Below are positions 3,404 through 35,447 of a stretch of 64,000 nucleotides of DNA, in pieces. A model generated the notes under the pieces. That model did not search any database and had not been told where the DNA came from. It saw only the letters and a program-made list of their open reading frames with translations. The translations under genes and the position numbers were made by a program. Every line of letters begins with the position of its first letter. The first letter of the stretch is position 1. This DNA is from Longimicrobiales bacterium (lineage in GTDB: Bacteria > Gemmatimonadota > Gemmatimonadetes > Longimicrobiales > Gaopeijiaceae), in the NCBI GenBank assembly GCA_965226625.1, contig CBDDDK010000001.1, positions 36,910-100,909 on the forward strand, written 5' to 3'.

Positions 3404-4537
3404 TCAGTACGTCAAGTACGAGACATCGACCCAGCTCCGGTTCGGTAGGCGACGTGCCCTGGTGAGGTTGGAGCCCAGGATCGCACGCTCGAGGGCGCAC
3501 TTCGAGTACGAGATTATCGAGCCACCGGTGTAGACCTGCCCGCCGAGAGTCGCGTTCCCAGCCAAGACACCCCCAAAAATCCGGTTTCCATTGCCCTGGG
3601 TCTCGAACTCTCCCTGAACTATGATCACACCGTAGAAGGCGAACTGCCCGCGCAGACTCAGGTCGCCCGCCACGAGCAAGATGCCCTGCCCGCGTCCGTT
3701 GGCCTGGATATTGGCGTCGCCGTTCACGAAGATGATCGGGAAATAACTTTCGCAGGGAGTCCCTGGATCCTCGGGCTCACCCCAGTTCTCGACGTCAGCG
3801 GCGTTGCAAGCGCCGCCCAACAGGCTCGGGGCTATGTCCAGGTTCCCCGCCGGAGGGAACACGTCCGCCATCGCAATCAGGTCGTTCCAATCCACGCTCC
3901 CGAACTCGGTGAAGGTCTCGTCGGTTATGGAGGGGTCCTGTGTGACCGGGGGCGTGCCGTCAATCATCCCCTGGCCTTGCGTGCCCACAGTGGAGGTCAT
4001 GTCGGTCGCTATGCCCGGCATGTTCGCGGGCACGTTCGTGCACCCGGTCCATTCGGGTGGGTACACGTCCTGCCCCAACACCGCTGCGTTGCCCCGCACC
4101 GAGATGCTTCCGCGTGTGGTCAGCGCCGCGGGTGGGTCCAAGTCAGCCGAGCTCATATGCGCCATGAGACCCACGCGGTGCGTCGCGCCCGCTCGCAGAG
4201 GCCCCCCCAGGCTGACCACGCCGGTCATATCGACGTAGTAAAACAAAGGGGTCATCTTGGTGACGGTCGCGGACCACGTCCCCTCTGGGAGCGTGCCCGT
4301 GACCTCTGTGCTGCCCCAGAGCGGGAGCGCGTTGTAGGCCGCTCCGTTCCAGTTGGTCAGGAACTCGACGGCGCTCCGCTCGGTCATGTTGAACGCGACC
4401 GACGACTGCTCGGCGGACCACCCTACGCGGTATTCCTGCTGGGCCATGTAGATCGCTCCCGTGATCAGCACGGCCAAGATGACGAGCGCCATGACGGCCG
4501 TCGGAAGCGCAAAACCTCGCGAAGTGGATATGTTCAT
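3404..4537 (-). CDS. PilX-like type IV pilus minor pilin / pilus assembly protein
   Basis: N-terminus MNISTSRGFALPTAVMALVILAVLITGAIYMA resembles the PilX N-terminal hydrophobic segment. It is the last gene of the minor-pilin operon. Start chosen at ATG 4537; the track start 4573 is an alternative. Confidence 0.6.
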   Translation of the reverse strand: MNISTSRGFALPTAVMALVILAVLITGAIYMAQQEYRVGWSAEQSSVAFNMTERSAVEFLTNWNGAAYNALPLWGSTEVTGTLPEGTWSATVTKMTPLFYYVDMTGVVSLGGPLRAGATHRVGLMAHMSSADLDPPAALTTRGSISVRGNAAVLGQDVYPPEWTGCTNVPANMPGIATDMTSTVGTQGQGMIDGTPPVTQDPSITDETFTEFGSVDWNDLIAMADVFPPAGNLDIAPSLLGGACNAADVENWGEPEDPGTPCESYFPIIFVNGDANIQANGRGQGILLVAGDLSLRGQFAFYGVIIVQGEFETQGNGNRIFGGVLAGNATLGGQVYTGGSIISYSKCALERAILGSNLTRARRLPNRSWVDVSYLTY

Positions 4538-4580: not shown

Positions 4581-5406
4581 TCAGTTCCTCGGGTGTATGT
4601 CCGAGACGAGAGAGTCCTGGATAACCCCTCCCGGCATCGCCGACGACGTGCGCAACACGATTCGTATTCTCTCCACCTGGGAAGGCACGATCGCCGCGGT
4701 CCCGAAGCCGTCCCAGTAGGTGAACGTCGGAGTGCCTTGCACACGCCGTAGCGGACCGACCAACGACGGGGACACCGTCCCACCGGAGCCCAACATCTCC
4801 CTCCCCAGGAACACCTGTCCGTCAACCAGAAAGAGGCCGTAGATGTAGTGGACGAAGGCTCGCACGGGAGCCCCGACGCTGATGGAATCCGGCGGAACTC
4901 CGACCGGCGTGTCCTCGATCTCTATGGATCTGGGCCGGATCCGTTCCGTTGCAGGACGTCGTACCGACGATGTCGCTGACTATCGCGAGCTTCCACACGT
5001 CGTCGGCGATCGTTTCCGGGAGGTTGGCCGCGAGCACGAAGATCGAGTCGTCCAGCACGAACGGATCCCCGACGTTTTGCACGGTCAGCCGAGGATCACT
5101 GCCGCTCAAGTCGACGTTGCAGACGAGGCCGAAGGTTCGGGGAGCGCGCACCTCGATGGAGTCAGAGCCCATATCGACCAGATCCCCCGTGGCGGGGCTG
5201 ATCTCCCGAAGCTCGCCGTAAATGATGCCCATCCCGGACCGGAGCGTCTGTTGCCCCCGAATCTTCGACGCGGCAGCGGTGAGGGTACGCTGGTTGCTGA
5301 TCAGGATATTGAGCGTTGCCATGATCACCAGGCTCCCGAGCACGGTCACGATCATGAGCTCCACCAGCGTAAAGCCGCGGGATCCGGTTGGGCGAGGGAC
5401 GGACAT
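4581..5406 (-). pseudogene. PilW-like minor pilin, apparently frameshifted
   Basis: Prepilin signature SRGFTLVELMIVTVLGSLVI follows ATG 5406. The plausible sequence in this frame ends near ...TSCNGTDPAQI (about 4930). It then continues in another frame (track ORF 4581..4865 and its upstream extension): ...IEIEDTPVGVPPDSISVGAPVRAFVHYIYGLFLVDGQVFLG... Confidence 0.6.
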
Positions 5407-5408
5407 AC

Positions 5409-5822
5409 TCAGAATCCCGGACTCGCGAAGGTGACGAACACGGTGTCGGCTACCACGTCCGAGAGCGCCGTCATCCCGGTGACCCCTCGCGGTCTCCCCA
5501 ACCCCACCGTCACGACCCTGAGAGTCCTGGAGCCTCCCGTGTTGGCGGTCACGGTCCACGTCACGTCGAACCTGCCGAATGTGCCGGAGCCTCCAACCAC
5601 GTTTGCGAACGGACCGGCCATAACCCCCTCGACAGCGCTCTGCCGCGCGACCGCCCGCTCGGTGGAGAGCTTCGAGAGCGTGATCTGGCGGACGACCCAA
5701 GTCGAGGTTCCAGCCATGCTCAAGATCCCGACGGACAGAATGACGACGGCGACGACAAGCTCGGCCAGTGAGAATCCAGACCGCTTGCGGGCGCGGATCG
5801 GGTCAGGTCCCGAGCTCACCAT
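5409..5822 (-). CDS. PilV-like type IV minor pilin
   Basis: 137 aa. The prepilin cleavage/methylation motif KRSGFSLAELVVAVVILSVGIL is followed by a small beta-rich domain. Sits within the minor-pilin operon. Confidence 0.65.
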   Translation of the reverse strand: MVSSGPDPIRARKRSGFSLAELVVAVVILSVGILSMAGTSTWVVRQITLSKLSTERAVARQSAVEGVMAGPFANVVGGSGTFGRFDVTWTVTANTGGSRTLRVVTVGLGRPRGVTGMTALSDVVADTVFVTFASPGF

Positions 5823-6268
5823 GTCACTTGACCCATCGGGAAGAGAACGACGGTCTGAGAGGCTTCGGCGGTCGCGAAAGTCAACTCGACCGGTTCGGCG
5901 AAGGAGTTACACCGGGACTCGGAGTACCCCCGCGCGATCATGCACAACTGCACCACGCCGCCGGCATCGGACTGAAGGTCGACGCCATCAGGAACGAACC
6001 GATAGGTCGTGATCGTATTGCCCCCCTGGACGATCCACGCGCTGTCGTTTTCGACGTCGATCATCAGCCTAGCCGTCGCTCCAAACTCGACCGCCTGGGC
6101 CCGTGTGCGCGCGTGCAGCGCTAGGAACGCTTGGCGGGCACCAGCTGCCGCGAGGACGCTGCGGGTCCTGGCTATCCTCGACGTCGTTGTCGAGAGCAGC
6201 ACGAAGCCGATCATGATCACGATAACGAGTTCTATGAGCGAGAACCCCTTGGACTGATAAAGCGTCAA
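5816..6268 (-). CDS. GspH/FimT-like minor (pseudo)pilin
   Basis: 150 aa with leader MTLYQSKG followed by FSLIELVIVIMIGFVLL. TTG start with a GAGG Shine-Dalgarno about 7 nt upstream. First gene of the operon. Confidence 0.65.
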   Translation of the reverse strand: MTLYQSKGFSLIELVIVIMIGFVLLSTTTSRIARTRSVLAAAGARQAFLALHARTRAQAVEFGATARLMIDVENDSAWIVQGGNTITTYRFVPDGVDLQSDAGGVVQLCMIARGYSESRCNSFAEPVELTFATAEASQTVVLFPMGQVTW

Positions 6269-6313: not shown

Positions 6314-6692
6314 TCCCGAGGGCCGCGTCAAGGATGGCGAGCCGCTATTTCAATACTTATCGGCGGCCGCTCCCCAAGTATAAGGATCAAGCACGGGATG
6401 GAGAGGCAGAAGACGAGCAAGCTGGCGAAGGGACTCGAACCCCAACCTGCTGATGGCAAAGCCGTACTTTTAAGGATCCTCAGACCGGTAGACTTCGCAT
6501 CCGTGAGCCATTTTGTCGCCGAGTACCGCCGGAACCTTGGCCGAGTCCGCCCGAGGTGGTCTGCTCGAGGAGCTCCCGGGCTATGTCGAGCAGACCCCAT
6601 TGCGGTGGAATCGCGGGATCATTGGGCTCTGTCGGGGTATTGGGTTGTCCGCGGTGAAACCCGCCGCCCACGCTCAGAGGTATCGGCCGATC

Positions 6693-9092
6693 ATGTCCAG
6701 CCCTTCGCTGACGAAGGAGTTTCCGTTCGGAACGCGCCTGAGCTTGGCGCACCTTATCGACTTCTGGGAGCGACAGGCGGGGGACCCGAGTTCCCTCCAT
6801 GCCCCCCTCGCCCGGATGATCGTCGAGAGGCTCGACGAGGCTCCCGAGCTGCGCCAGATCATTGACGAGCGCTCCGTGCTGGAGACGCACGCGGAGCTCA
6901 TCGACCTTCTGATGACCGCCATCGTCCCGGCCGGTCGGCGCGACGACTACTACGCCATGGCCGTCGACCCCTTCGGGACCGTCCCCTTCTACGAGTCGCC
7001 GGGATGGCGACGACTCGAGCTCGGTGACAGCGAACGCATCCACGAACACCTGAGCATCCCACCGGATCAACTGCTCTTCGGGAAGCTCATGTGGGCCTAC
7101 GAGTTTCTGCTCGAGGAGTGGGTCGGAGTCGAGGCGGATCTCCAACACGCGATCGTCATGACGGTACGCGATGAGGAGGTCGGTCTAGACAGGCACTTCT
7201 CGTTGGGTATTGATCCGCGGTTCGTAACGGTCCGGCTCGTGCGCGACATCGAAAAGCCGTCTCCGGATGTGATTGCACGCCTGCTGGCTGAGCCGACCAA
7301 CCTCGACCTGTGGACTGAGACTCTACCTCCGGACGCCTTCGAGTTCGATGGGATGACGGTGATCACCGCCGTGGACGTGACACCCCACGAGGTGGTTTCA
7401 CGACTCAAGAACGACCTCATCGAGAAGGGCTCGATAGCGTCGCCCGAACGGGTCGATCAGCTCCAGCATCGCATTCGCAACCTCCTGGGTCGCCCCGAGC
7501 TCAGCCTTGGCCTCATCGCTTTCGACCGGCGAGCGGACGTTGATTCCATCGAAGCTGCGAGGGCGGTCGGCAGGAGCCTGCTTCTCTGCGACGAGTGCGC
7601 GCCCACGTGCCCTAACCGGGCCAGTTCCCACTATGGTGCCGTCTTTCACGGTACCGACCCGGTCATCGTTCAGGATCTGAAGAAGTCGAAGGTGCGCACC
7701 GGATACGAACACCACCTTCGGAAGCATGGCCACCGTAGCCTGCTTCTCTATCCGCTTCACGTAGACGGTAAGGTGGTCGGCCTCATGGAACTCGCTTCCC
7801 CGAAGCCGGGAGACCTCAACGCCTTCAACGCTCGCAGACTGCTGGACGTCGTTCCGCTTTTCGCCACTACACTCAAGCGCAACCTTGACGAGCTCGAGGA
7901 CCGTGTGCAGGCTCTGATCAAGCGGAAGTACACGGCGATCCACTCGGCCGTCGAGTGGCGTTTCCGGGATGCCGCGCTGAGCTATCTGGAACGGAGTGAG
8001 CGCGGTGAGGTGAGCCCCGAACTCGAGCAGATCGTATTCAACGATGTGTATCCGCTCTACGGTCTGTCCGACATTCGCAGCTCGTCGCGGATACGCAACG
8101 AGGCCATTCGGGAAGACTTGAGAGAGCAGCTTCAACTGGCGCTGGACGTAATCAATGTGGCGGGGCAGATCCAACCGCTTCCCGCGCTCGAGGAAGTCGG
8201 GTACCTACTGACGCGGCATCTAGACCAGATCGAAGCGAACCTCCGGTCGGACGACGAATCGGGCGTCCTACACCTCCTCCGACAGGATGTAGAGCCGCTC
8301 TTCGCAGAACTCGAGACCTACGGGAGTGATGTGGCCGAGCGTGTTGCGGCCTATCGCGGGGCGCTGGACGACGACCTGAACATCGTCTACCGGCGGCGCA
8401 AGGATTTCGAGCTGAGCATGGCGGCCATGAACGACGCTACGTCCATGATCCTCGACGCGGAGGAGGAGCGAGCGCAGGCCATGTTCCCTCACTTCTTCGA
8501 GAAGTTCCGGACCGACGGTGTTGATCACAGCATCTACGTTGGCGCCGAGCTCCACGAGGACGCAATCTTCGATGAGCTCTATCTGCGCAACCTCCGGATC
8601 TGGCAGCTCATGACGGCGTGCCGGATCGAGTGGGAGCTCGCCGGGATAAAGGACGACCTGCCCGTGCCTCTCGAGGCGACCCACCTGGTGCTCGTCCAGC
8701 ATCAGCCGCTCTCGATCCGGTTCCGCATCGACGAAAAGCGCTTCGACGTAGACGGGGCGTACGACATCCGGTACGAGATCGTCAAGAAGAGGATCGACAA
8801 GGCGCTCGTCAGAGGGACAAAGGAGCGCGTAACCCAGCCGGGCCGGCTCGCCATCGTGTACTCCACGGCCAGCGAAGGAGCCGAGTACAGGCGGTACGTC
8901 GATTTCCTCCAGAACAAGGGCTACTTCGCCGCGGGGCTGGACGAGCTGGAACTCGAGGACCTGCCCGGCATCTCCGGACTCAAGGCGCTACGAGTCACCA
9001 TCGCGAGCGAAATTGCAAACGAGACCGGTGAGCCGGGCCAGCCGGCTCGACCATCGGCCAGGGACATCGCGATGGTTCTTGCCGCAGATTAG
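6693..9092 (+). CDS. Large GAF-domain-containing protein of unknown function
   Basis: About 800 aa. The central segment ...HGHRSLLLYPLHVDGKVVGLMELASPKPGDLNAFNARRLLDVVPLFATTL looks like the end of a GAF domain, flanked by long conserved-looking N- and C-terminal regions. ATG 6693 is preferred; the track start 6513 adds an Arg/Gly-rich leader. Confidence 0.6.
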   Translation: MSSPSLTKEFPFGTRLSLAHLIDFWERQAGDPSSLHAPLARMIVERLDEAPELRQIIDERSVLETHAELIDLLMTAIVPAGRRDDYYAMAVDPFGTVPFYESPGWRRLELGDSERIHEHLSIPPDQLLFGKLMWAYEFLLEEWVGVEADLQHAIVMTVRDEEVGLDRHFSLGIDPRFVTVRLVRDIEKPSPDVIARLLAEPTNLDLWTETLPPDAFEFDGMTVITAVDVTPHEVVSRLKNDLIEKGSIASPERVDQLQHRIRNLLGRPELSLGLIAFDRRADVDSIEAARAVGRSLLLCDECAPTCPNRASSHYGAVFHGTDPVIVQDLKKSKVRTGYEHHLRKHGHRSLLLYPLHVDGKVVGLMELASPKPGDLNAFNARRLLDVVPLFATTLKRNLDELEDRVQALIKRKYTAIHSAVEWRFRDAALSYLERSERGEVSPELEQIVFNDVYPLYGLSDIRSSSRIRNEAIREDLREQLQLALDVINVAGQIQPLPALEEVGYLLTRHLDQIEANLRSDDESGVLHLLRQDVEPLFAELETYGSDVAERVAAYRGALDDDLNIVYRRRKDFELSMAAMNDATSMILDAEEERAQAMFPHFFEKFRTDGVDHSIYVGAELHEDAIFDELYLRNLRIWQLMTACRIEWELAGIKDDLPVPLEATHLVLVQHQPLSIRFRIDEKRFDVDGAYDIRYEIVKKRIDKALVRGTKERVTQPGRLAIVYSTASEGAEYRRYVDFLQNKGYFAAGLDELELEDLPGISGLKALRVTIASEIANETGEPGQPARPSARDIAMVLAAD

Positions 9093-9279
9093 GCGAAGGA
9101 TCGTGCGGCAGTGATCAAGCCACCGAAGTTCGTGACGCAGTAGTATCCACGCCGTCCGTCGGTTGCCGAATCGGTAGGATCGGCCTCCTCGGGCTGGCTC
9201 CCGCCCGCAGCCCTTCAGTTTTTCGACCGTCCCACACGAGAGTTCTACCTCGTGGGCAGGTTGTAGTCCGTCCAGGCCG

Positions 9280-10422
9280 TCAACGCCCGCTGGGGTCTAC
9301 GACTTCCGCAGTCTTCGGATCGTTCCGGAACGGGTAGACCAACTGCCTGAGATACCCCTTCGGGAACCGCTCCTCCCCTAGCCCCATCGTCTTTGGCCAC
9401 TCGTCGCCGGGTAAGTGATAAGTGCCGAACAGCCTGTCGATGAGGGGGAAGTGGATGGCGAAGTTCTTGTCGTAGAGCTGGGGATCGTCGGAATGGTGCC
9501 AGTGGTGGTACTGCGGGGTGACCAACAGGTACTTGAGTGGTCCGAACGGGGTGCGGATGTTGGCATGGGCGGCGACGGCCTGCAGCGCGACAATCGCCAC
9601 ATACGCGTAGAACACCGGTACCGAGAAGCTCAGCACGTAGAGCGGGATGTAGGAGAACGCCCGCGTAACGAAGATGTCGACGAGGTGCAGTCGCGAGCCG
9701 GCGAGCCAGTCGACCGCACGAATCGAGTGGTGCACGGCGTGGAAGCGCCACAGGAGGCGGTTGGAATGGAAGGCTCGGTGAGCCACGTACTGGAAGATGT
9801 CGGCGACCAGCATGGCCAGGAACAGCTGCACGAGGAATGGCTAACTCGATACCGTCGACTGGGTTCCCGCCAGCCCCCAGCCCCCGAAGATCGACTCTGC
9901 CGGGGCTTTGACCGCCACAGCCGTGAACTGCACGAGCAAATGACCGACGGCAAAATACACGAGATCGGTTTTCCACTCGAGGTGGAACTTGGTCTGCTCG
10001 GCACGCTTGGGTAGAAAAAGTTCGAGCGGGATGAAGATCGCCGACAGAACCAGGATGTCGATCAACAGCCAGTCGAGGCTGATGGAGACGATGCTTTGGT
10101 TGAAGTCCTGGATCTCGACGGTGTTGCCGCCCAGAACGATGGCAAACGCGCTGATGACGACGCCGGCGAGCCCGAGCTTGGTCGTGCCGCTGAGGAGAAA
10201 GCTCGTGAGGGCAAAGCCGAAGGCGAGCACCAAGCCAGCGAGCAGCAACCAGCGCAGGACGTCTACGGAGTAGACAGCACGAAACTCTGGCGTCGTGAAG
10301 TACTCGGGAAAGTGGAAGCAGATCACCGCTCCCAATGAGATCAGCGCGAGGAAGATCGACAGATAGCCGCTGATCTTGCCCTCCCCTATGCGCAGCCTCT
10401 GAGGCTGAAGCCGCTCAGTCAT
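9280..10422 (-). pseudogene. Polytopic fatty-acid hydroxylase / sterol-desaturase-family protein with an in-frame TAG
   Basis: Track ORFs 9841..10677 (real start ATG 10422, MTERLQPQRL..., about 5 TM segments) and 9280..9831 are in the same frame, separated by TAG at 9841-9843 (...GTQSTVSS*PFLVQLFLAMLVADIFQYVAHRAFH). His boxes HRAFH, HAVHH and HHWHH lie in the downstream part. Confidence 0.6.
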
Positions 10423-11138
10423 CGTTGGAAGAAACGCACCACGAACTCGACCCGTGGAAAGAAGCGGAGGGCGTCGAGCAGGGGGTTCATCCAGCCGGTG
10501 GTCACGCAGAACCCGAGGCTGTGGTCGCGATGATGGCGCCGGTGGCGCTCGGGCATGAGGATGAGGCCGCTGCGTTGGAGCCAGCGCACGGCTACTGGCG
10601 GCTTCGGCGCATGCGCCCACTTGTGGAAGAGATTGGTCCCGAATGATCCCGTGGCCAGACCCAGGAGGCAGCAGCACCAGAACAGCGCGGCGGCGCCCCC
10701 CTGCAGAGGCGCCCCCAGCCAGTACGCCACCGCAAGCGGTGGTAGCATGAGTAGGAAGCTCACCGTGTCCTGCTCAATGAATTGATAGCGGGTGATGCGC
10801 TGCGGGTGCAGGTGGTGATCGCGGAAAGGTCGGATGACGAGCTGGCCGATAAGGGGCGCGTCCTCTTCAAAGAACGTGTCACAAAACCAATGCGCGGTGC
10901 CAGAGAGCAGGTCGGCGAAGACGTAACCGAGCAGGAAGGCAGGGAACACGAGCCAAGCGGAGGCACCCGCGGCGAGGGCGATCACGATGCGGGCGAGGAG
11001 GGTTAGGAGGAGCGCGCTCGATGCGGCAACCCCGGTGATCTTGAATGCCGTGAGCGCCGCAGGCTGAGGGGGCACCGTCCAGACCACCTTCGAGGACTCG
11101 AGTCGCTGGGTGGTCGTCGAAGACTCTCCTTCACTCAT
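10419..11138 (-). CDS. carF: CarF / PEDS1 (TMEM189)-family lipid desaturase (plasmanylethanolamine desaturase-like)
   Basis: Motifs IRPFRDHHLHPQRITRYQFIE, LFHKWAH, LMPERHRRHH and FCVTTGWMN match the family His-motifs as I recall them from human PEDS1. Start ATG 11138 (MSEGESS...). Its stop overlaps the start of the next gene (ATGA). Confidence 0.8.
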   Translation of the reverse strand: MSEGESSTTTQRLESSKVVWTVPPQPAALTAFKITGVAASSALLLTLLARIVIALAAGASAWLVFPAFLLGYVFADLLSGTAHWFCDTFFEEDAPLIGQLVIRPFRDHHLHPQRITRYQFIEQDTVSFLLMLPPLAVAYWLGAPLQGGAAALFWCCCLLGLATGSFGTNLFHKWAHAPKPPVAVRWLQRSGLILMPERHRRHHRDHSLGFCVTTGWMNPLLDALRFFPRVEFVVRFFQR

Positions 11139-11202
11139 GCACTCAACATGCGGCTCACATCCGCAGACCGCTAGCAGATCCTGCCGCCATAACACCTCAG
11201 TT

Positions 11203-12570
11203 CTAGAGCGACCGACCAAGCTCGAGCAACGTCTTCACACGGGCGCGCTCGACTTTTCCGTTCGCGTTGACCGGCAGCTCGTTCTCGACCCACCAGAGTC
11301 GAGGGCGCTTCGCGGCACTCAGCAGCTCGCGCAAAGATTCGTCGACGGCATCGAGGTCGAACTCGCCCTCTGCGGGCACAACACACGCACCGACCACTTC
11401 GCCCCACTCGGCGTCGCTTACCCCGACCACGCACGCGTCCGCGACGGCAGGATGCGCACGCAGCGCCTGCTCGACCTCGACCGCGTCGACCGTGACGCCG
11501 CCAGAGACGATGCGGTCGATCCGGCGGCCCGTAACCCACACGTCTCCCACATCGTCGACGTGACCGAGGTCACCTGTGTGGTACCAGCCGTCAGTGTCGG
11601 CAATGGCTTCATCAGAGCCGACATAGCCGATGGCTCGGGTTCTGCCGCGCACGAGGATCTCCCCCCGCTCGTCAATCTTCAGCTCCACACCCTCGAGCGG
11701 CTTGCCCAAGGCGCCCGGCTTCGACCGCACGTGAGCCGGGGGCGCAGTCGCCACCTGGGAGGTCATCTCAGTCATGCCGTATGTCAGAGAGATGGGCCAA
11801 CCCGCTTCGAGTGCCCTGGTCACCAGGTCGGCGGGCGCACGTGCTCCACCGATGAGCGCGCACCGAAACGAAGGCGGCGGTCCCTCGGCTCGATGGTCGA
11901 GAAGCCGAAGAAGCTGAGTGGGAACCAGCGACGCATGGGTGACGGCGCGAAGCAAGCCACCGGAAGGACGCTTATCGTTGGAAGGCAGCAGGCCGTCGAT
12001 GAGATGCGAAGTGACCGCGACGTCGAACGCGCCCGCAGCGAACACGGCAGCTCCGGTCATGAGCGCCCTCGCAACCAACGAGAGCCCCCCCACGTGAGCG
12101 ATCGAGAGTGAGGCCAGCCACACGTCGTCGGCACTCGAGCCGAGCCGATCGCCGACGGCCGTGGTGTTGGCACGCAGGTTGTCGAACGAGAGTGCCACAC
12201 CGCGCGGCATCCCGGCAGTCCCGGAGGTCCACAGGATGACCTGCGCTCCCGTTGCCACCCCCTCCAGGACCGTGCGCGCACCGTCGGTCTCCACACGGGT
12301 CAGCTTCGGGTTGAGCGGGGCGACCGTCGCACCGCACCGCCAAGTCGCCAACAGCGTGATGATCCCGTCCACATCGTTGCTCGCAACCGTGGGCCGTACG
12401 GCCTTCGCATCGACACCCTCGGCCGCCAGGGCTCGAGCGCGTTCGTCGACGGAGCGGTTCAACTCCTCGTAGGTCCACGAGCCTCCAGGCCACAGCAACG
12501 CGACCCGCGCTGGGTCCACCCTTGGCCCGCCATTCCCGGCGAGCGCCCACTCGAGCAGATCGACGACCAT
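11203..12570 (-). CDS. menE: O-succinylbenzoate-CoA ligase (AMP-dependent synthetase)
   Basis: 455 aa. AMP-binding motifs ILWTSGTAGMPRGV, YGMTE, GWYHTGD and NGKVER. Last gene of the men operon, with a one-nt TGATG overlap with menA. Confidence 0.8.
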   Translation of the reverse strand: MVVDLLEWALAGNGGPRVDPARVALLWPGGSWTYEELNRSVDERARALAAEGVDAKAVRPTVASNDVDGIITLLATWRCGATVAPLNPKLTRVETDGARTVLEGVATGAQVILWTSGTAGMPRGVALSFDNLRANTTAVGDRLGSSADDVWLASLSIAHVGGLSLVARALMTGAAVFAAGAFDVAVTSHLIDGLLPSNDKRPSGGLLRAVTHASLVPTQLLRLLDHRAEGPPPSFRCALIGGARAPADLVTRALEAGWPISLTYGMTEMTSQVATAPPAHVRSKPGALGKPLEGVELKIDERGEILVRGRTRAIGYVGSDEAIADTDGWYHTGDLGHVDDVGDVWVTGRRIDRIVSGGVTVDAVEVEQALRAHPAVADACVVGVSDAEWGEVVGACVVPAEGEFDLDAVDESLRELLSAAKRPRLWWVENELPVNANGKVERARVKTLLELGRSL

Positions 12571-13478
12571 CAGCCGACAGCGAGTCCGAGCCCGAGCAGT
12601 ACGCCGTAGACACCGACGACGCGGGCTGTCTCGCCCAGCGCCGGCAACAGTTCCACCGGGTCGGCATGCGTCAGGACGCGTCGCACGGGCGCGAGGCAGA
12701 GCGGAGCGACCAGCAGCGCGGCGAGCGAAGCCGCGGGCCAGCCGTACACGCGCCAGCCGACGACCGGAACGATGAACGCGACGAGCAGCATCATGAGGTA
12801 CTCGGCCTGCGAGCCGCGCGTGCCGAGCCGCACCGCGAGCGTGCGCTTGCCCGCTTTCGCGTCGGTCTCGATGTCACGCAGGTTGTTCGCCACTAGGATT
12901 GCGGTGTTCAGCGCGCCCAACGACGTACCCGCGAGAAGAACATCCGGCGGCCACGACAGGCCCTGTACGTAGTAGGTCCCGCTGACCGCGACGAGTCCGA
13001 AGAAGACGAAGACGAAGACATCGCCGAGCCCGTGGTACGCGAGCGGAATCGGTCCACCGGTGTACAGCACTGCGCACGCTAGTGAGGACAGTCCGATCCA
13101 CACGATCGGCCAGCCGCCCACCCAGACCAGGTACGTGCCGACGAGCATGGCCGCACCGAGCACGGTCCACATGCCGCGTTTCACGGTCTCCGGTGCGAGA
13201 ATTCCGGCCTGAGTGACCCTCGGCGGCCCGACACGATCCGTGGTATCCCCTCCGCGCACGAAATCATAATAGTCGTTCGCGAAGTTGGTCCCGACCTGGA
13301 TCAGAGTCGCGCCGACCAGCGCGGCGAACGCCGGAAAGGGGGCGAGCACACCGTCGTGAGTGGCCAAGGCAGTCCCGACCAGCACGGGGGCCAGCGCCGC
13401 TGTCAGGGTCTTCGGGCGAGCCGCCAGCAACCAGGCCTGCGCCCTGGTGACCTCGGGGACGGCTACCAGGGCAACCAC
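12570..13478 (-). CDS. menA: 1,4-dihydroxy-2-naphthoate polyprenyltransferase (UbiA family)
   Basis: 302-aa polytopic protein with UbiA-type motifs ([23 protein letters not shown]). Sits in men context. Confidence 0.85.
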
Positions 13479-14302
13479 GGATATTTCCGGAACTCAGGCT
13501 TTCGCTTCTCCAGGTATGCCCGCTGTCCTTCCTGTCCCTGCTCGGTCATGTAGAAGAGCAGCGTCGCGTTGCCGGCAAGCTCTTGAAGCCCAGCCTGGCC
13601 GTCGAGATCGGCGTTGAAGGCGCTCTTGAGCAGGCGAATCGCCAGCGGACTCTTCTCAAGAATCTCCTGCGCCCACGCCCAGCCCTCGTCCTCGAGCTGT
13701 TCGAGCGGCACCACCTTGTTCACCATGCCCATCTCGTGCGCCTCCGCAGCCGAGTACTGGTGGCAGAGATACCAGATCTCGCGGGCTCGTTTCTGGCCCA
13801 CCATGCGTGCGAGAAATGAGGAGCCGAAGCCCCCGTCGAACGAGCCGACGATTGGTCCGGTCTGGCCGAATACCGCGTTGTCCGCAGCCAGTGTCAGGTC
13901 GCATACGACGTGTAGCACGTGGCCTCCTCCGATCGCGTAGCCGGCAACGAGCGCGATCACCGGCTTAGGCATCGAGCGCATATAGCGCTGCAGCTCCAGC
14001 ACGTTGAGACGTGGCACTCCGCTCTTATCGACGTATCCGCCTTCCCCACGAACGCTCTGGTCGCCGCCTGCGCAGAACGCCCACTTGCCGTCCTTCGACG
14101 GCCCGTTGCCCGTCATCAGCACGACCCCAATGTGGGGGTCCTCGCCAGCGTCTCGAAACGCCTCCTGCATCTCGAGCAGCGTATCCGGGCGAAACGCATT
14201 GCGCACCTCTGGCCGGTTGAACGCGATGCGCGCAACACCGTCACACTTGTGGTAGGTGATGTCGTCGTACTGCTTGACCTCTTTCCAGTCGGGCTTGCTC
14301 AT
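13463..14302 (-). CDS. menB: 1,4-dihydroxy-2-naphthoyl-CoA synthase
   Basis: From ATG 14302: [39 protein letters not shown]...GGDQSVRG...[18 protein letters not shown]... Crotonase fold with the MenB C-terminus [19 protein letters not shown] overlap with the menD stop. Confidence 0.9.
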
Positions 14303-16080
14303 GGACGGCGTGGTGTCAGGGGTAAGGTGAACGCCTCGCGGACGGCGTCGGTCACCGCGTCGGAGACTTCCCGATGCCGCCGTACATTCGTCTCGCGGTC
14401 CGTCCGTACCCGCACGATACACGTGCGGCCCGATTCGAGCGCAACCGTGAGCGCCGTGTCGAGCTCGTCAATCTCTTCGTCGGAGAAGGCTATGTCGTAC
14501 ATCTCGGCGACGTGACGGAAGTCCAGGCCGTGAGGCGTAGCAAAGTACTTCGTAAACGCCGGCTCGTGCTCGGCGATTGGGAGCATGTGGAAGATCCCAC
14601 CCCCGTCGTTGTCGATCAGGACGAACACGACCGGCGCATCGGGCTCACGACTCCAGAGCAGGCCGTTCAGGTCGTGGAACAAGGCGACGTCACCAATCAC
14701 GCACACAGTCGGCTGCCCGGTCGCCGCTGCGACACCGAATGCTGTCGAGACGATTCCATCGATGCCGCTCGCTCCGCGGTTGCCGAAGACGCGCACGGTC
14801 TCGTCGCGAAGAACGCCGAATGCGTCGAGGTCGCGAATGGGCATCGAGCTCGATACGAAGAGGTTGGCTCCCTCGGGGACGGCGGCCAACACTGTCGCAA
14901 GCACGTCTCCCTCGTGCGGCTCGCCTCGCTCCGACTGGAGCGCTACCCGGACCGCCGACTCCGCCGACAACCACAGCTTACGCCACTCGTCACCGGCGCT
15001 GGCGCCTGCGCGCGCGGCCAACGCGGCAAGCGTATCGGCCGCATCGGCACGCACGTAGTCGGTCGCAGTGGCGCCGTGGTCCTTCCAGCGCCCTCCTCCG
15101 TCGATCACGATGTGCCGCACGCCGTCGTTGTGGAACAGCCAAGCCTGGAGCGCCGTGGAGGTGGGCGACGCACCCACGCGCAGCACAAGAGCTGGAGCGA
15201 GTGCCGCGTACACATCGGGGTCCCGCAAGAGCAGATCGTAGCCGTCGACAACGTGCGCCCCGCTCGACGGAGCAAATCGGGCCCCGGAAAGCGGGTCCGC
15301 CAAGAGAGGGAAGCCGGTCGCGGCTGCGAGGCGCAGCACGGCCTCACCGCTCTTCACCGGATCCGAACTCGGCCCGGCCACGATCACACCACGAGGTGTG
15401 TCCAACGCGCCGAGCAATGTGTCCAGTGCCTCGGAGGACGCCTGTCGCCGACCCGCTTCGACCTGCACGAACGCATCCCCACCAGACCTTCCAGCCTCCG
15501 CCAAAGAGTTCTTCTCGAGAAAGTCCCGATGCCCCTCGATCGGCTCGAACGGCCTATCGAGCGGGAAGTTCAGGTGCACGGGCCCCGGCGCGGCGCCCCT
15601 CGCGGCCGCGACCGCACGCACCGCGAGAGTACGGAGATGGCGTAGCGCGGCATCCTCCACGGAGGGCGGCGCGACCTCGAAGAAAGCCCTTGGGTACGGA
15701 CCGAACAGCCTCAGTTGGTCGATCGCCTGGTTCGCGTCCGAGTCGCGCAGGTGGTGCGGCCGATCTGCTGTGAGCACAAGCAGCGGCGCTTCGCTATGGG
15801 AGGCCTCGATTACTGCGGGAAAAGCGTTCGCCGTCGCGGTGCCCGAGGTCGTCACAAGCACGGCGGGCAGCCCCGAAGCCTTGCCGATGCCGAGCGCGAA
15901 GAAGGCGGCTGATCGCTCGTCGAGATGGACCCGCACGCTGAAGCGGTCGTCTGCGTCGAACGCCAGCACCAACGGCGTGGAACGCGAGCCCGGTGCTACC
16001 ACGACTTCGCGTACGCCCGCACGCGCCAACTCGTCACAGAAGGCACTAATCCAGAGGGTGGTGTCGGCGCCGCTACTCAT
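14299..16080 (-). CDS. menD: SEPHCHC synthase (2-succinyl-5-enolpyruvyl-6-hydroxy-3-cyclohexene-1-carboxylate synthase), ThDP enzyme
   Basis: From ATG 16080: [41 protein letters not shown]...[17 protein letters not shown]...[12 protein letters not shown]. The track ORF extends spuriously to 16401. Overlaps the menF end by 8 nt. Confidence 0.9.
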
Positions 16081-17491
16081 GACCGGTGCCGGGCACCTCC
16101 ACGGCGGACTCGGTGCCTCTGTTCCGACCCAACTCGGCTCCGGTCGACTCGAGCGCGCCGAGCATCGGCTCGAACTTGATGACGGTCTCCTCCCACTCGA
16201 GGGCGGGGACCGATCCCTCGACGATACCCGCCCCTGCGAAGAGACGCCAACCACGCCCTGCCGAGACGCCCGACCGGAGCGCTGGGGCGAAAATTCCGTT
16301 CCCCTCCGCGTCGAACCAACCGACGGGTCCCGAATACCACCCACGGTCGAACGCCTCCTGGTCTGCCAGAAGATCCATTGCGGCATCACGAGGCAGGCCA
16401 CACACCGCGGGGGTGGGGTGCAGAAGCCGAAGTAGGTCCAGGACCCCGACGGTCGCCGGCACGCTCGCGCGGATCTCGGTCTCGAGATGCTGGATGCGGG
16501 CCAACGTCAGCACATGGGGCTGTGGGTCGGCGCGGATCTGATGGCCAACCGTCTCGAGCCGCGCGATCATGTCATCCAGGGAGATGCGCTGTTCAACCCG
16601 GTCCTTTTCGCTCGCCAGGAGTTGAGTCGCCAATTCCGCCTGCTCGCGTGGAGTCGAACCACATCGGATCGAGCCGGCAACGGCGGTCGCGTGGAAGACC
16701 CCGTCCCTTAGCGTCGCGACGGTCTCCGGGGCCGCACCCACCAGCGCCGACTTCGGCTCCGGCTCGAACATGAAGACGTGGCTTCCGCGGTTGGAATCCC
16801 ATAGACGCGACACGACATCGACCGGATCGATCGCATCGTCGAGATCGACGTCCAGAGTACGCGCAAGCACGACCTTCGAGACACGCCCCTCGCGGATCGC
16901 GTCGAGCGATTCTTCGACCGCGCGCTTCCAATCGCCGCAGTCAGTCATGGTACGCCGGCCAGGCACCGAGCTCGGCGTGCGCGCCCGCGTATCCGTGAAC
17001 GTGGTCAGCTCGGCGCGTAGCGCCTCCGCGCGGTGACGGAGCCGCACAAGGACATCGCCCGACTCTTCATACGAGACGAACGCACGCGCGCGCAGCCAGG
17101 CATCGCCCGATCCGTCGCCCTCGAGCTCGAAGGCCGGCACCTGGAACAGCCAAGCTGGAAACGCCTGCCAGACCCCTTCCTGGCAGTGGTCTGCTCGAAA
17201 CGAAAAACCCCCATAGAAGCGGATCCGAGGTGCCCTCGCCGCCCCGGGCGGGAGAAGCGGGTCCGACGCGACCTCGTGCGCCAACGCGGCGACCAGCCCG
17301 TAGCGGTCCGTACCCGTCCGGGCATCGGGTCTGAGCTCGGCAACCACCCCCCGATGCGCCACCCACCGATCACCGCGCGCCCAAAACCCGCGGGCCTCTC
17401 CCGACGCGTGCTGGAGAAAGTGGTCAGGACGCAGATCCGGCGCGGGAATCGTCACGGTGGCGAGGCGACGGGCGCCAAGCGTTCGCTTCAA
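16073..17491 (-). CDS. menF: Isochorismate synthase
   Basis: 472 aa with chorismate-binding C-terminal motifs (LHPTPAVCGLPRD, RGWYSGPVGW, AGAGIVEGS). First gene of the men operon. Confidence 0.85.
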   Translation of the reverse strand: MKRTLGARRLATVTIPAPDLRPDHFLQHASGEARGFWARGDRWVAHRGVVAELRPDARTGTDRYGLVAALAHEVASDPLLPPGAARAPRIRFYGGFSFRADHCQEGVWQAFPAWLFQVPAFELEGDGSGDAWLRARAFVSYEESGDVLVRLRHRAEALRAELTTFTDTRARTPSSVPGRRTMTDCGDWKRAVEESLDAIREGRVSKVVLARTLDVDLDDAIDPVDVVSRLWDSNRGSHVFMFEPEPKSALVGAAPETVATLRDGVFHATAVAGSIRCGSTPREQAELATQLLASEKDRVEQRISLDDMIARLETVGHQIRADPQPHVLTLARIQHLETEIRASVPATVGVLDLLRLLHPTPAVCGLPRDAAMDLLADQEAFDRGWYSGPVGWFDAEGNGIFAPALRSGVSAGRGWRLFAGAGIVEGSVPALEWEETVIKFEPMLGALESTGAELGRNRGTESAVEVPGTGHE

Positions 17492-28509: not shown

Positions 28510-29460
28510 ATGTCGACCACACACTCCAATTCGAACGAGTGGGCCTTGATCCTCGGAGGCTCGAGCGGATTCGGCCTTGCCACGGCGCACAAGCTCTCTC
28601 GGCACGGCTCCAACGTCTGTGTCGTGCATCGCGATCGCCGGGGCGCGATGAAGCGCATAGAGCCGGAATTCGACGCGATACGCGGAAGGGGCGTCTCGCT
28701 GCTCACGTTCAACGCGGACGCGCTGAACGCGGAAAAACGCGACGAGATCCTGGACGCCCTCGCGGAGTCACTCGGAGCCGCTGGCAAGGTATGCGTGATG
28801 TTACACTCGATCGCCTTCGGCAACCTCAAGCTGATAGGCCCGGAAGGCGCTTCCGACAACGATGCGCGGGAGCGGTTGGCTGCCGCGATGCACGTCGACC
28901 CCCGGCAGCTGGCAGAGGCCGTCGACAGACTTTTCGAGCAGGGGGTGTATGGCCTGCAAGGCGTTAGCACCGCACCGCAATACTCCGCCGATGCGCTCCT
29001 CGAGGAGGAAGACATGGCGCGCACCATCCACTCGATGGGCACGAGCTTGCTCGGCTGGACTCAACGGCTCCGCGAGCGCGGCATGTTCGCTGACGACGCG
29101 CGCGTGTTTGGACTCACCAGCGAGGGCAACGCCGTTGCGTGGAAGGGGTATGCGGCAGTCGCCGCCGCCAAAGTCGCGCTGGAGTCCGTGTCCCGATCCA
29201 TCGCAGTAGAAATGGCACACTTCGGGATACGGTCGAACATCATCCAGGCGGGCGTCACGGATACGCCGGCGCTGCGCATGATCCCCGGGAGTGGGCATCT
29301 GAAAGCGCAGGCCGTGACGCGGAACCCATTCGGCAGACTCACCACACCCGAGGATGTCGCCAACGTGATCTATCTCCTGTCTCAGCCCGAGGCCGCGTGG
29401 ATCAATGGCGAGATCATTCGCGTAGATGGCGGCGAAGCGATTTCGGGGCTGTCACGATGA
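28510..29460 (+). CDS. SDR-family reductase, enoyl-ACP-reductase-like (Y-x6-K), with an internal insertion
   Basis: LILGGSSGFGLATAHKL dinucleotide motif. KGYAAVAAAKVALES has FabI/FabL-like Tyr-x6-Lys spacing. An insertion of about 50 aa (GPEGASDNDARERLAAAMHVDPRQLAEAVDRLFEQGVYGL...) is present. First gene of the coupled operon. Confidence 0.65.
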   Translation: MSTTHSNSNEWALILGGSSGFGLATAHKLSRHGSNVCVVHRDRRGAMKRIEPEFDAIRGRGVSLLTFNADALNAEKRDEILDALAESLGAAGKVCVMLHSIAFGNLKLIGPEGASDNDARERLAAAMHVDPRQLAEAVDRLFEQGVYGLQGVSTAPQYSADALLEEEDMARTIHSMGTSLLGWTQRLRERGMFADDARVFGLTSEGNAVAWKGYAAVAAAKVALESVSRSIAVEMAHFGIRSNIIQAGVTDTPALRMIPGSGHLKAQAVTRNPFGRLTTPEDVANVIYLLSQPEAAWINGEIIRVDGGEAISGLSR

Positions 29461-30452
29461 GCATGTACCTGCATGGGCTCGGGCACTTCCACCCCGAGAA
29501 CGAGATCACCAACGAGTTCCTCACCAGTCTGGACATCGGTTCCAACGCCCAGTGGATCGAGGAGCGCGTCGGCATCGAATCGCGCCGCACCGTGATGTCG
29601 CTCGACTACATCAAGGAGACGCTGAACCGCGACTTCACACAGGCCGCTGAGGCGTCCGAGTACACGCACGCCGAGACTGGCGGGCTTGCCTCAGAGATGG
29701 CGCTCCAGCGTGCGGGGCTCCAGGCGAGCGACATGGGCATGGTCATCGCCGGAAGCTGCAAGCCCGACTTCATGTCTCCTTCCGACGCATGCACGATTGC
29801 GGGACGGCTCGGCATCGAAGCGCCGTCGTTCGACATCAATTCGGCATGCACGAGCTTCCATGTCGCGCTCTATACACTCGCCATGATGAAGCCCGAAGCG
29901 CTTCCAGAGTTCGTGCTCGTGGTGACGCCGGAGACGGTGACGTGCTCGGTCGACTACTCGGACCGCACCGGAGCGGTGCTCTGGGGAGACGGCACGACAG
30001 CGGCGATTATCTCGACCAAGGTACCTTCCCTCATCCAGATCCTCGGCAACTCGATCGAATCGAGTCCGGCGGGGTGGGACAAGGTCACCATCGCTTCCAA
30101 CGAGCATTTCCGACAGGATGGCCGGACCGTCCAGATGTTCGCCATCAAAAAGACCGTACGCGTTCTCAAGCGGCTGCAGCAGGAGTTTGCCGATCCCGGC
30201 CGGCGTCTGCACTTCGTGGGGCACCAGGCCAACCTGAGGATGCTCGACGCCGTATGTCAGCGGTGCGAGATCACCGAGGACCTCCACCACAGCAGCGTAG
30301 TGAACTTCGGCAATACGGGCGCGGCCGGCGCCCCGGGCGTGGTCTCGATGCGCTGGGACGAGTGGCAACCAGGCGACGACGTCGCCTTGGTTGGTGTCGG
30401 TGCGGGTCTCACCTGGTCGGGACACCTCTACCGGTTCGGGGAGGCTTCGTGA
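29457..30452 (+). CDS. 3-oxoacyl-ACP synthase III (KAS III, FabH-like)
   Basis: MSMYLHGLGHF... with Cys/His/Asn triad contexts NSACTSFHVAL, FVGHQANLRM and NFGNTGAAG. ATGA overlap with the upstream stop. Confidence 0.8.
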   Translation: MSMYLHGLGHFHPENEITNEFLTSLDIGSNAQWIEERVGIESRRTVMSLDYIKETLNRDFTQAAEASEYTHAETGGLASEMALQRAGLQASDMGMVIAGSCKPDFMSPSDACTIAGRLGIEAPSFDINSACTSFHVALYTLAMMKPEALPEFVLVVTPETVTCSVDYSDRTGAVLWGDGTTAAIISTKVPSLIQILGNSIESSPAGWDKVTIASNEHFRQDGRTVQMFAIKKTVRVLKRLQQEFADPGRRLHFVGHQANLRMLDAVCQRCEITEDLHHSSVVNFGNTGAAGAPGVVSMRWDEWQPGDDVALVGVGAGLTWSGHLYRFGEAS

Positions 30453-31042
30453 CCTACGAGGACTTTCTGGCTCGGCCAAATCTCACGCAGGAGGAGGTTC
30501 TGGCCATGTCCTACGGACGTCTGATCGACGACCCGCCCGAGGACTTCAAGACCCGCCTCCCCGCCCCCCCTATGCTCATGGTCGACCGCGTGGTCGAGAT
30601 GACCGAAAACGGGCGCACAGGTAGTATCGTGGGCGAGAAAGACATCCGCCTGGACGATTGGTTCTTCCAATGTCACTTCACCGCCGACCCCGTGCAGCCC
30701 GGCTGCCTCGGAGTCGACGGGGTATGGCAGCTCATCGGCCTCTATTGCGCGTGGCGGGGAGCGATGGGTACAGGACGCGCGCTCGGCGCCGGCGAGATCG
30801 ACTTCTTCGGGCAGATCCGCCCACACGACAAACTCGTGCGCTACGAAATCGACATCCTCCGCTACCAGGCCCTACCCAAATCCGGCTCCGCGGTCGCCAT
30901 CGGCGACGCCCGGGTGATCGTGGACGGCGAGGAGATCTACACGATCAAGCGCGCCAAGGTCGGTGCCTTTCTCGACATCGACTATGCCGACTATCCGTAC
31001 CCGAGCGCGCGATCGCGCGGCGGCAAGATGGAAGCGGAATGA
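30449..31042 (+). CDS. fabA: FabA-type 3-hydroxyacyl-ACP dehydratase / trans-2,cis-3-enoyl isomerase
   Basis: GTG start (GTGA overlap). LPAPPMLMVDRV...WFFQCHFTADPVQPGCLGVDGVWQL contains the FabA His and Asp active-site contexts. Confidence 0.75.
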   Translation: MTYEDFLARPNLTQEEVLAMSYGRLIDDPPEDFKTRLPAPPMLMVDRVVEMTENGRTGSIVGEKDIRLDDWFFQCHFTADPVQPGCLGVDGVWQLIGLYCAWRGAMGTGRALGAGEIDFFGQIRPHDKLVRYEIDILRYQALPKSGSAVAIGDARVIVDGEEIYTIKRAKVGAFLDIDYADYPYPSARSRGGKMEAE

Positions 31043-31515
31043 GCGACGCTTGCGCAGGGGTGGTACTCACGCCCAAAGAGGTGTTCGAGCTGCTTCCCCA
31101 GAAAGACCCGTTCCTCTTCGTGGACGAAGTCCTGGAAGTCTCCGACGAGCACATCGTCGCCTGCTTCACGTTCCGACATGATCACGACTTCTACCGTGGC
31201 CACTTTCCGGGCCGCCCGGTAACCCCTGGTGTGATCCTGCTGGAGAGCCTCGCTCAGGTCGGCGTCGTCGGACTCGGCCTGTACCAGATCGCGCGCGATC
31301 AGGGGCGCGACGCAGTGCTCGACGCGTTAGCGCTCTTCACCGACGCCAACGTCGAGTTCACCGGTCTCGTGAGTCCCGGGGACCGCGTGACCATCCGCGC
31401 AGACAAGGTCTTTTTCCGGCGCGGCAAGATCCGCTCGGAAGCCGAGATGACGCTCGAAGACGGCGCCGTCGTTTGCTCAGGAACAATCTCGGGCATGGGA
31501 GTCCCCCGGCGGTGA
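31039..31515 (+). CDS. fabZ: FabZ-type 3-hydroxyacyl-ACP dehydratase
   Basis: ATGA overlap. LPQKDPFLFVDEV...YRGHFPGRPVTPGVILLESLAQVG hot-dog motif. Confidence 0.75.
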   Translation: MSDACAGVVLTPKEVFELLPQKDPFLFVDEVLEVSDEHIVACFTFRHDHDFYRGHFPGRPVTPGVILLESLAQVGVVGLGLYQIARDQGRDAVLDALALFTDANVEFTGLVSPGDRVTIRADKVFFRRGKIRSEAEMTLEDGAVVCSGTISGMGVPRR

Positions 31516-32789: not shown

Positions 32790-32838
32790 CCTTAGTCTTT
32801 ACGTCCGCAATATCGAACCGATAGGAGCTACCACGCCC

Positions 32839-33084
32839 ATGGATCAGAGTGAGATCCGCGCCAAGATTCTTCAAATCATCAGCATCTATGCCAAAAACAA
32901 GGATGCCGTAGTGTCGGCAACGGACGAGACGAACATCCTTCAGGACCTGAAGGTGAACTCGGCGCGGCTGGTAGACGTCATCCTCGACTTGGAAGATGCC
33001 TTCGACATCGAGGTCGACGACGAAGACGCCGACAACGTCAACACTATCGGAGACGCCATCTCCCTCATCGCTGCCAAGATCTGA
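32839..33084 (+). CDS. Acyl carrier protein
   Basis: 81-aa acidic protein. LQDLKVNSARLVDVILDLEDAFDIEV carries the phosphopantetheine Ser in helix-II context. Confidence 0.85.
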   Translation: MDQSEIRAKILQIISIYAKNKDAVVSATDETNILQDLKVNSARLVDVILDLEDAFDIEVDDEDADNVNTIGDAISLIAAKI

Positions 33085-33092
33085 CCCTCAAG

Positions 33093-35303: not shown

Positions 35304-35447
35304 CGACATTTCCGTGGTGAGATCGACGTTTCGAGCGCCACGGCCGTTGACGGAACGCCGAGCGAGCGGAGGCGGGCGTGACCCAAGGCTCACACGACTG
35401 GCTCGGGGACCTACGCATGCGGTGGACTCAGAGCCCGTCCCGATACC

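Follow-up and report, generated by a model that had tools for sequence, protein, structure and literature searches.

Does an in-frame stop codon in the second gene of an overlapping pair mark a dead gene, a divided gene or a recoded one, and what might such a pair do for its host? The question is raised by a locus on the minus strand of contig CBDDDK010000001.1 of a Longimicrobiales bacterium, of which a stretch of 64,000 nt was analysed (the window, to which coordinates refer unless another sequence is named). The upstream gene, gene A, encodes a PF10520 protein; the downstream gene, gene B, encodes a member of the fatty-acid hydroxylase superfamily and is interrupted by an amber codon. A sequence-only reading of this DNA had proposed a CarF/PEDS1-type plasmalogen desaturase and a hydroxylase that together remodel ether lipids, the second partner being either inactivated or dependent on read-through. 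The evidence gathered here makes it likely that the two genes form a coupled lipid-enzyme module and that gene B in this genome is a recent loss-of-function pseudogene, created by an amber mutation at Trp194. The parts of the locus are as follows.

10419..11138, minus strand: gene A, from the ATG at 11138 to the TGA at 10421-10419; 239 amino acids; a predicted membrane di-iron desaturase of PF10520 (Lipid_desat; PEDS1/CarF/FAD4 superfamily), apparently intact
10419..10422, minus strand: ATGA overlap of the stop codon of gene A and the start codon of gene B (putative translational coupling), read directly
10422 to 9280, minus strand: gene B as a whole, from the ATG at 10422 in one frame to the TGA at 9282-9280; 380 codons with a single in-frame TAG
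9841..10422, minus strand: 5' part of gene B, codons 1-193 and the premature TAG; predicted family-specific N-terminal five-helix membrane domain, from the translation and colinear orthologues
9841..9843, minus strand: premature amber codon 194 of gene B, from TGG (Trp); TGG in the relative L001 and in an otherwise identical contig of run X6
9280..9840, minus strand: 3' part of gene B, the remaining codons 195-380, still in frame; holds the FA_hydroxylase catalytic domain (PF04116) and every His box

The TAG is not an artefact, since the same codon is present in an independent assembly, L082 (a 3.83 Mb contig that is 99.92% identical across 18 kb and differs in its insertion sequence (IS) content), and in Logan contigs identical to the window from runs X1, X2 and X3, which represent three samples and two studies. 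The gene calls of L082 split gene B in the same way, into fragments of 193 and 183 amino acids. The sequence-only reading had called for the TAG to be confirmed in raw reads, and the recurrence seen here is in contigs rather than raw reads; four further runs (X8, X9, X10 and X16) gave contigs too fragmentary at the site of codon 194 to reveal the allele. Contigs from X6, on the other hand, are identical to the window except for a C at plus-strand position 9842, which restores TGG, and they span the rest of gene B uninterrupted. TGG is also found at codon 194 in L001, the closest other relative (99.7-99.8% identical). All orthologues listed or aligned encode gene B as a single open reading frame (ORF), the point on which the sequence-only reading had wanted its fusion of the two fragments checked. 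At the column of the stop, close orthologues have Trp and distant ones Leu, Gln, Ile or Met (among 48 metagenomic homologues, L 27, Q 10, W 6, I 3 and M 2), and no stop was found there in any orthologue aligned. The TAG is thus genuine, a single G-to-A transition from Trp194 (TGG) to amber that is polymorphic in the natural population, and the presence of the TGG allele in the same population marks it as a recent mutation.

TAG is also a normal stop codon in this organism. After filtering on third-position GC, 50 window ORFs remain; their stop codon is TAG in 21, TGA in 24 and TAA in 5, and menE, directly upstream of gene A, terminates in TAG. No tRNA gene was found in the window. Codon reassignment or programmed recoding is not indicated, given that orthologues lack a stop at this column, that a TGG allele is present and that TAG ends so many other frames. 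Every His box of gene B is located 3' of codon 194 (HRAFH at codons 215-219, 9780-9766; HAVHH at 228-232, 9741-9727; HHWHH at 306-310, 9507-9493), so that termination there would leave an N-terminal membrane domain without any catalytic residue. The sequence-only reading had placed the TAG correctly and in frame, but 10 codons ahead of the first His box; the distance is 21 codons, from codon 194 to H215. Because the TAG is real, TGG is ancestral in relatives, orthologues are single ORFs and TAG is a routine stop, gene B of the window is best regarded as a recent pseudogene allele.

The nonsense allele is not the only lesion in gene B. In the sister strain L001, an IS256-family element (PF00872 transposase) lies inside the gene, flanked by an 8-bp direct duplication, at a site that is free of insertion in the X6 contigs:

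10253..10260, minus strand: IS256-family target site in L001 (GTCCTGCG), gene B codons 55-57; 8-bp target duplication, from blastn and junction sequences

This insertion is a second, independent knockout allele of gene B. Two lesions and an intact allele among near-identical strains argue that gene B is dispensable or is being lost. Gene A of L001 appears frameshifted at ~4200-4230 of that contig (window 10701-10713) by single-base changes in G-runs; this was considered as a third lesion and set aside as a probable read error, given the G-runs and the 4.5x depth of the contig.

Insertion sequences abound in this genome. The window has three transposase genes of the rve/IS3 type (52666-53742, 54249-54854 and 62075-63151), of which one is a fragment, and the 358-amino-acid transposase has an identical copy on another contig of the same assembly. 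L082 carries an IS1595 element at window ~4240-4251 that is absent from the window, L001 has one element of the IS256 type and another of the rve type (4666-6116 and 8785-10055), and more insertion elements occur in L164 and L167. Two relatives of gene B have abnormal C-termini: in P0042 (366 amino acids) the sequence after HHWHHSDNPE is wholly divergent, and in L167 (6720-7823) an 8-residue deletion in helix 3 and an altered tail are found, and transposase genes follow the gene. These are possibly further cases of IS-related damage. In L137 (4001-4839), residues 25-213 of gene A are fused directly to residues 278-380 of gene B, an apparent deletion remnant, and L088 and L089 (4001-4660) have a Tyr-type gene A, 72% identical, with no gene B in the 0.9-1.8 kb that follow it.

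Beyond this population, the order A then B is conserved as a two-gene module across several phyla (Gemmatimonadota, Verrucomicrobiota and SAR86/Gammaproteobacteria). A gene B homologue is adjacent to gene A at 57 of 71 metagenomic gene A loci with enough flanking sequence to be assessed, a count in which the relatedness of the loci is ignored. The genes are mostly co-directional, separated by anything from a 27-nt overlap (the L137 remnant) to a 174-nt gap, and convergent in distant soil lineages. A zero gap or a 4-nt overlap like that of the window, where the ATGA noted in the sequence-only reading is present at 10422-10419, also occurs in L084, L085, L090, L107, L124, L165, L166 and L167. 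The last three are genome-scale contigs that share the same 4-nt overlap in unrelated neighbourhoods, and the flanking genes differ among L082, L165, L166 and L167. The module moves as a unit. The proposal of a two-gene module thus has stronger support than a reader of one sequence could have known. A search for the A-B pairing found no mention of it in the papers covered.

Seen from gene B, the association is much looser. Gene A is upstream at only 6 of 81 gene B loci (80 from a genome collection, and L001): L001 itself, a Longimicrobiales metagenome-assembled genome (MAG), two loci of a Verrucomicrobiota MAG, a gammaproteobacterial MAG and a SAR86 MAG. Gene B stands alone at many loci in Bacteroidota, Planctomycetota and other phyla. 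The asymmetry between 57 of 71 and 6 of 81 suggests that gene A depends on gene B, or on its product, far more than the reverse. Among the neighbours of gene B at the 80 genome loci, only genus-level synteny was found, and gene A is the only partner common across phyla. An apparent second partner ('cluster 2') proved to be a spurious ORF antisense to gene A and was rejected. The L165 pair comes after a gene for a PF00487 fatty-acid desaturase.

Gene A belongs without difficulty to PF10520 (150.9 bits against a cut-off of 26.4; residues 72-236 aligned to positions 1-166 of the 175 in the profile), and the motifs listed in the sequence-only reading (IRPFRDHHLHPQRITRYQFIE, FHKWAH, ERHRRHH and FCVTTGWMN) are all present in its translation. 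The family assignments of both genes, which had been made without a profile search, are upheld by formal scores above the cut-offs. Gene A is 29-31% identical to animal PEDS1 across the whole domain and keeps H83, D87, F105, H108, H109, H172, H176, H199, H202 and H203, in register with mouse H96, D100, F118, H121, H122, H187, H191, H215, H218 and H219. The rodent numbering, including H131, was verified against the published mutagenesis (PMC8960569), in which D100 and F118 are essential alongside eight universal His residues. Gene A is therefore probably an active member of the PEDS1/FAD4 superfamily, and with its catalytic residues intact it may remain active alone. It departs from PEDS1 at the ninth His, where it has ITRYQFIE in place of ITRHDFIE:

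10785..10787, minus strand: Tyr118 codon of gene A, at the column of the PEDS1-specific ninth His (mouse H131 / CarF H113), from alignment with rodent and primate PEDS1

The ninth His is found in every homologue that complemented carF (from animals, myxobacteria and Leptospira), and is missing from those that did not, namely three Arabidopsis proteins, FAD4 included, and a Bradyrhizobium protein; plants usually have Arg at this column (PMC9131029). Mouse H131 is not an iron ligand, and the H131A variant retains ~7% activity (PMC8960569). Among 80 loci related to gene A, the column holds His in 35, Asp in 25 and Tyr in 16, and modules of all three variants have a B partner, in some cases 80% identical to that of the window. 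The NCBIfam CarF model (NF045946, cut-off 500 bits) gives gene A 144 bits, His-type bacterial homologues 183-187 and animal PEDS1 ~233. Its cut-off was dropped as a test of PEDS1 membership, since genuine animal PEDS1 proteins also fall below it; the threshold marks only myxobacterial CarF and is uninformative here. That gene A is a CarF/PEDS1 plasmalogen desaturase, as first proposed, is thus not established.

Gene A is itself polymorphic in this population:

10707..10713, minus strand: polymorphic in-frame indel of 3 nt (GGC/CGC), in the part of gene A that encodes a Gly/Ala-rich loop; compared across assemblies and contigs

The 3-nt GGC insertion is present in X2, X3 and L082 and absent from the window, X1 and X6. 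Both states of this indel are found with TAG as well as with TGG in gene B, a pattern suggestive of recombination or repeated slippage. In L107, L124, L128 and L165 (10001-11841; P0194, P0206, P0233), gene B is 80% identical to that of the window, but gene A is much more divergent (44-47% identity), and its sequence includes the ninth His and the PEDS1-like motif ITRHGFFELNGNNC. Over its final ~20 residues, however, this gene A hardly differs from that of the window, which gives it the appearance of a mosaic or recombinant.

Gene B matches PF04116 (FA_hydroxylase) with 99.7 bits (cut-off 31) over residues 201-334, all of them 3' of the TAG, and the HRAFH, HAVHH and HHWHH boxes reported in the sequence-only reading are present. 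These HX3H, HX2HH and HX2HH boxes are invariant among 50 orthologues; the His set comprises H215/H219, H228/H231/H232, H286 and H306-H310. The N-terminal ~190 residues, in which D117, W118, E134, H147, E149, W150 and D153 are invariant among orthologues, matched no Pfam family. A search for gene B homologues returned 4296 proteins, and among those listed nearly all are 370-390 amino acids long and cover the whole query; 80 genome loci of many phyla align over residues ~1-380. The nearest genomes are Longimicrobiales and Gemmatimonadota MAGs, at 86% and 83% amino-acid identity in gene B. The only curated family to match gene B and all 49 orthologues tested is OlsE (NCBIfam NF052566; best E 8.6e-44, first member 143 bits); gene B itself reaches 134 bits against a cut-off of 475, with residues 191-368 aligned to model positions 110-286.

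An AlphaFold model was made for an intact orthologue, P0001 (~87% identical to gene B; pLDDT 81.6, pTM 0.79). It predicts one compact helical bundle, with N-terminal helices at 16-37, 53-78, 82-98, 116-136 and 150-170, and places residue 194 in a short loop between a helix at 185-193 and one at 196-220, which carries the first His box. The 183-amino-acid downstream ORF of the gene calls starts at GTG 9831, codon 198 of gene B, and so falls within the latter helix, as the sequence-only reading had anticipated. A Foldseek search of the P0001 model against the PDB gave no match at E < 0.8, and thus no lead for the N-terminal domain; a PDB search by sequence with profiles of the gene A and gene B families found no related solved structure.

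Other accounts of the TAG have to be weighed against a recent pseudogene allele. A sequencing or assembly error, in which the TAG would be absent from the DNA of the organism, might be suspected from a source that looks like a MAG, from the depth of ~4x in public runs and from error-like homopolymer indels in gene A of the related low-coverage L001 contig. The change is a base substitution, not a homopolymer indel, and both independent assemblies have it, as do contigs of another three samples; error is effectively refuted and retains next to no probability. A split but functional gene B, in which translation stops at the TAG, re-initiates at GTG 9831 (or at the ATG of codon 204) and yields fragments that assemble in the membrane, is rather improbable. 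It would fit the position of the TAG in a predicted loop, the GTG 9 nt further on, the called ORF that holds the entire Pfam domain and the persistence of the allele in several samples. A start at this GTG, however, cuts off the first residues of the helix that bears the first His box and has no Shine-Dalgarno-like sequence ahead of it on inspection; no natural split at codon 194 was seen among thousands of homologues listed or aligned, and the clear IS knockout in the sister strain argues that the gene is dispensable. The read-through half of the earlier alternative, that a near-cognate or unlinked suppressor tRNA reads UAG and supplies a functional level of full-length protein, is very improbable. 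Since W, L, Q, I and M are all accepted at the column, insertion of Gln, Trp or Tyr would probably be harmless, and gene B is otherwise undamaged, but a strong suppressor would be costly where TAG ends 21 of 50 ORFs, menE included. The absence of a tRNA gene in the window and of a stop at column 194 in orthologues, which gives no hint of a programmed event, also speaks against it, as does the coexisting TGG allele that marks the TAG as recent. Inactivation, the other half, agrees with a TGG-to-TAG change in a gene that is one ORF in its orthologues.

Several observations nevertheless weigh against a module with a recently lost gene B. The read-level evidence consists of low-depth (~4x) Logan contigs, not raw reads, and loss of function is a prediction from the sequence. 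Apart from codon 194, gene B shows no further decay (no frameshifts; closest relatives 98% identical), which is equally well explained by the recency of the mutation. The break lies in a predicted interhelix loop with a GTG 9 nt downstream of the TAG, which makes a two-piece enzyme conceivable, and Gln occurs naturally at column 194 in 10 homologues, so that any protein made by read-through would probably work. Several samples carry the TAG allele, which stands on two haplotypes, one with the GGC indel and one lacking it; this spread suggests that it is not strongly deleterious, and residual function would fit it too. Finally, the proposal that the two enzymes act on the same lipid in sequential steps is drawn only from the linkage of their genes.

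The nature of that lipid is a separate matter. The gene A family is, to our knowledge, the only one known to form the vinyl-ether bond aerobically, which favours a reading in which gene A is a true plasmanylethanolamine desaturase and gene B an AGMO-like enzyme acting on the same C1' of 1-O-alkyl lipids, together an aerobic ether-lipid module. Gene A keeps the eight universal His and the equivalents of D100 and F118, and some modules join an 80%-identical B to a nine-His, PEDS1-like gene A (ITRHGFFELNGNNC). The residual activity of mouse H131A and the fact that H131 is not an iron ligand (PMC8960569) suggest that Tyr could substitute. The His spacing of gene B (HX3H, 9 residues, HX2HH ... H, 20 residues, HX2HH) is that of human AGMO (PMC7911779), probably a superfamily-wide property. 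Against this stand Tyr118 itself, as homologues without the ninth His did not replace CarF (PMC9131029), and the ranking on the CarF model, in which gene A (144 bits) falls below the His-type bacterial proteins (183-187) and these below animal PEDS1 (233). Neither the window ORFs scanned nor the surroundings of four other modules revealed a gene resembling AGPS, FAR, GNPAT or ElbD. A recent survey counted no more than 73 GTDB genomes with the complete aerobic set of plasmalogen genes, and Myxococcota account for 61 of these (PMC13012113). Gene B, moreover, is widespread without gene A in Bacteroidota and other phyla, with OlsE as its only curated match. The plasmalogen reading is accordingly unlikely, and the ether-lipid remodelling first proposed finds no support in the window. 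There is likewise only an outside chance that the pair is an undescribed, widespread bacterial lipid-tailoring module (of marine Gemmatimonadota, SAR86, Verrucomicrobiota and soil bacteria) that amounts, at most, to a non-myxobacterial aerobic route to vinyl- or alkyl-ether lipids. In such a module, the PEDS1/FAD4-type desaturase would act on a lipid that is either the product or the substrate of an OlsE/AGMO-like hydroxylase. If such an ether route were real, desaturation and hydroxylation would meet at the same C1' carbon, and the gene B knockouts would be natural experiments that shift the lipid product.

The preferred reading, a coupled module with a recently lost gene B, may be put in mechanistic terms. 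Desaturases of the PEDS1/FAD4 superfamily act on the chain of an intact lipid near its linkage. Genes A and B would encode two histidine-box di-iron membrane enzymes that likely tailor the same membrane lipid in sequence, not necessarily an ether lipid: gene A by linkage-proximal desaturation, and gene B by hydroxylation, as an OlsE-like enzyme with a family-specific five-helix N-terminal domain. In the window genome the gene B step would have been lost, under relaxed (or loss-favouring) selection in an IS-rich genome, leaving gene A orphaned or acting alone.

Upstream of gene A, on the same strand, lies a compact menaquinone operon (11203-17491) with menF-like chorismate-binding, menD (thiamine pyrophosphate enzyme), menB (ECH), menA (UbiA) and menE (AMP-binding) genes, whose neighbours overlap at start and stop codons; a 64-nt gap separates it from gene A. 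The position directly downstream of menE, which the sequence-only reading had stressed, is preserved in the closest relatives (L082, L084, L085 and L091), but not in the Longimicrobiales L002 or elsewhere. A functional link of the pair to menaquinone was thus rejected, as the adjacency is lineage-specific and looks incidental. On the other side, gene B faces a convergent plus-strand gene (6513-9092), whose 859-amino-acid product shows no more than a weak GAF-domain match. The 187-nt gap between its stop at 9092 and that of gene B at 9280 contains no terminator-like structure that could be found, and a promoter and terminator scan of 8900-11500 gave no signal above chance. Further away, a plus-strand cluster at 29139-36134 encodes KAS III-like and beta-ketoacyl synthase proteins, a PlsC-type acyltransferase, a DegT-family aminotransferase and a Bac_transf sugar transferase, and may be a lipid- or glycolipid-related pathway; within it, at 29139-31042, two long ORFs overlap in different frames.

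For annotation, the amber codon is a routine recent nonsense allele in an IS-rich uncultured marine bacterium of the Gemmatimonadota, a case of ordinary gene decay, and gene B is fittingly labelled a pseudogene, not two genes or a recoding event. We know of no function for bacterial PF10520 proteins outside the Myxococcota. Their tight linkage to one subfamily of FA-hydroxylases, itself very common in marine and soil bacteria, is a modest, new and testable lead into the function of these desaturases. It offers lipid biochemistry a two-gene unit with natural B-null, B-intact and A-only variants to compare.

Among known systems, the animal alkylglycerol monooxygenase AGMO/TMEM195 shares membership of the FA_hydroxylase superfamily with gene B. 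Its His residues 132, 136, 145, 148, 149, 201, 221, 224 and 225 (human numbering, PMC7911779) are spaced as 215, 219, 228, 231, 232, 286, 306, 309 and 310 of gene B, which is probably a trait of the whole superfamily. Of the residues specific to and essential in AGMO (Q162, D233, N235, Y236, W243 and D244), D233, N235, Y236 and D244 correspond in offset to D318, N320, F321 and D329 of gene B, a correspondence made on published positions only and taken to be a superfamily-wide motif. The architectures differ: the catalytic domain of AGMO is N-terminal with four more helices after it, whereas that of gene B is C-terminal. OlsE, the ornithine-lipid C4 head-group hydroxylase of Rhizobium tropici, has FA_hydroxylase His boxes like those of gene B. 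The scores of 134-143 bits, however, are far under the 475 required, only the catalytic half aligns, and the N-terminal domain of gene B is longer and distinct (~190 residues, five helices). OlsE homologues are reportedly widespread in Proteobacteria and Bacteroidetes, and it has been suggested that they hydroxylate aminolipids of other kinds (PMC11631085, PMC12971839), a distribution that would fit the spread of gene B but is not evidence for orthology.

For gene A, the nearest characterised proteins are PEDS1/TMEM189 and Myxococcus xanthus CarF, which share PF10520, the eight essential His and the equivalents of D100 and F118. They differ in having the ninth His where gene A has Tyr118, in their longer N- and C-termini, and in that coupling to a hydroxylase-family gene was not found described for carF in the literature examined. 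The bacterial PF10520 clade that includes the non-complementing Bradyrhizobium homologue resembles gene A in lacking both the ninth His and recognisable plasmalogen genes nearby. FAD4, the plant plastid delta-3-trans desaturase that acts on the sn-2 16:0 chain of phosphatidylglycerol, is alike, by its published description, in family, in the arrangement of eight His and in the absence of the ninth; it differs in the plant Arg at that column, which is Tyr in gene A and Asp or His in sister clades.

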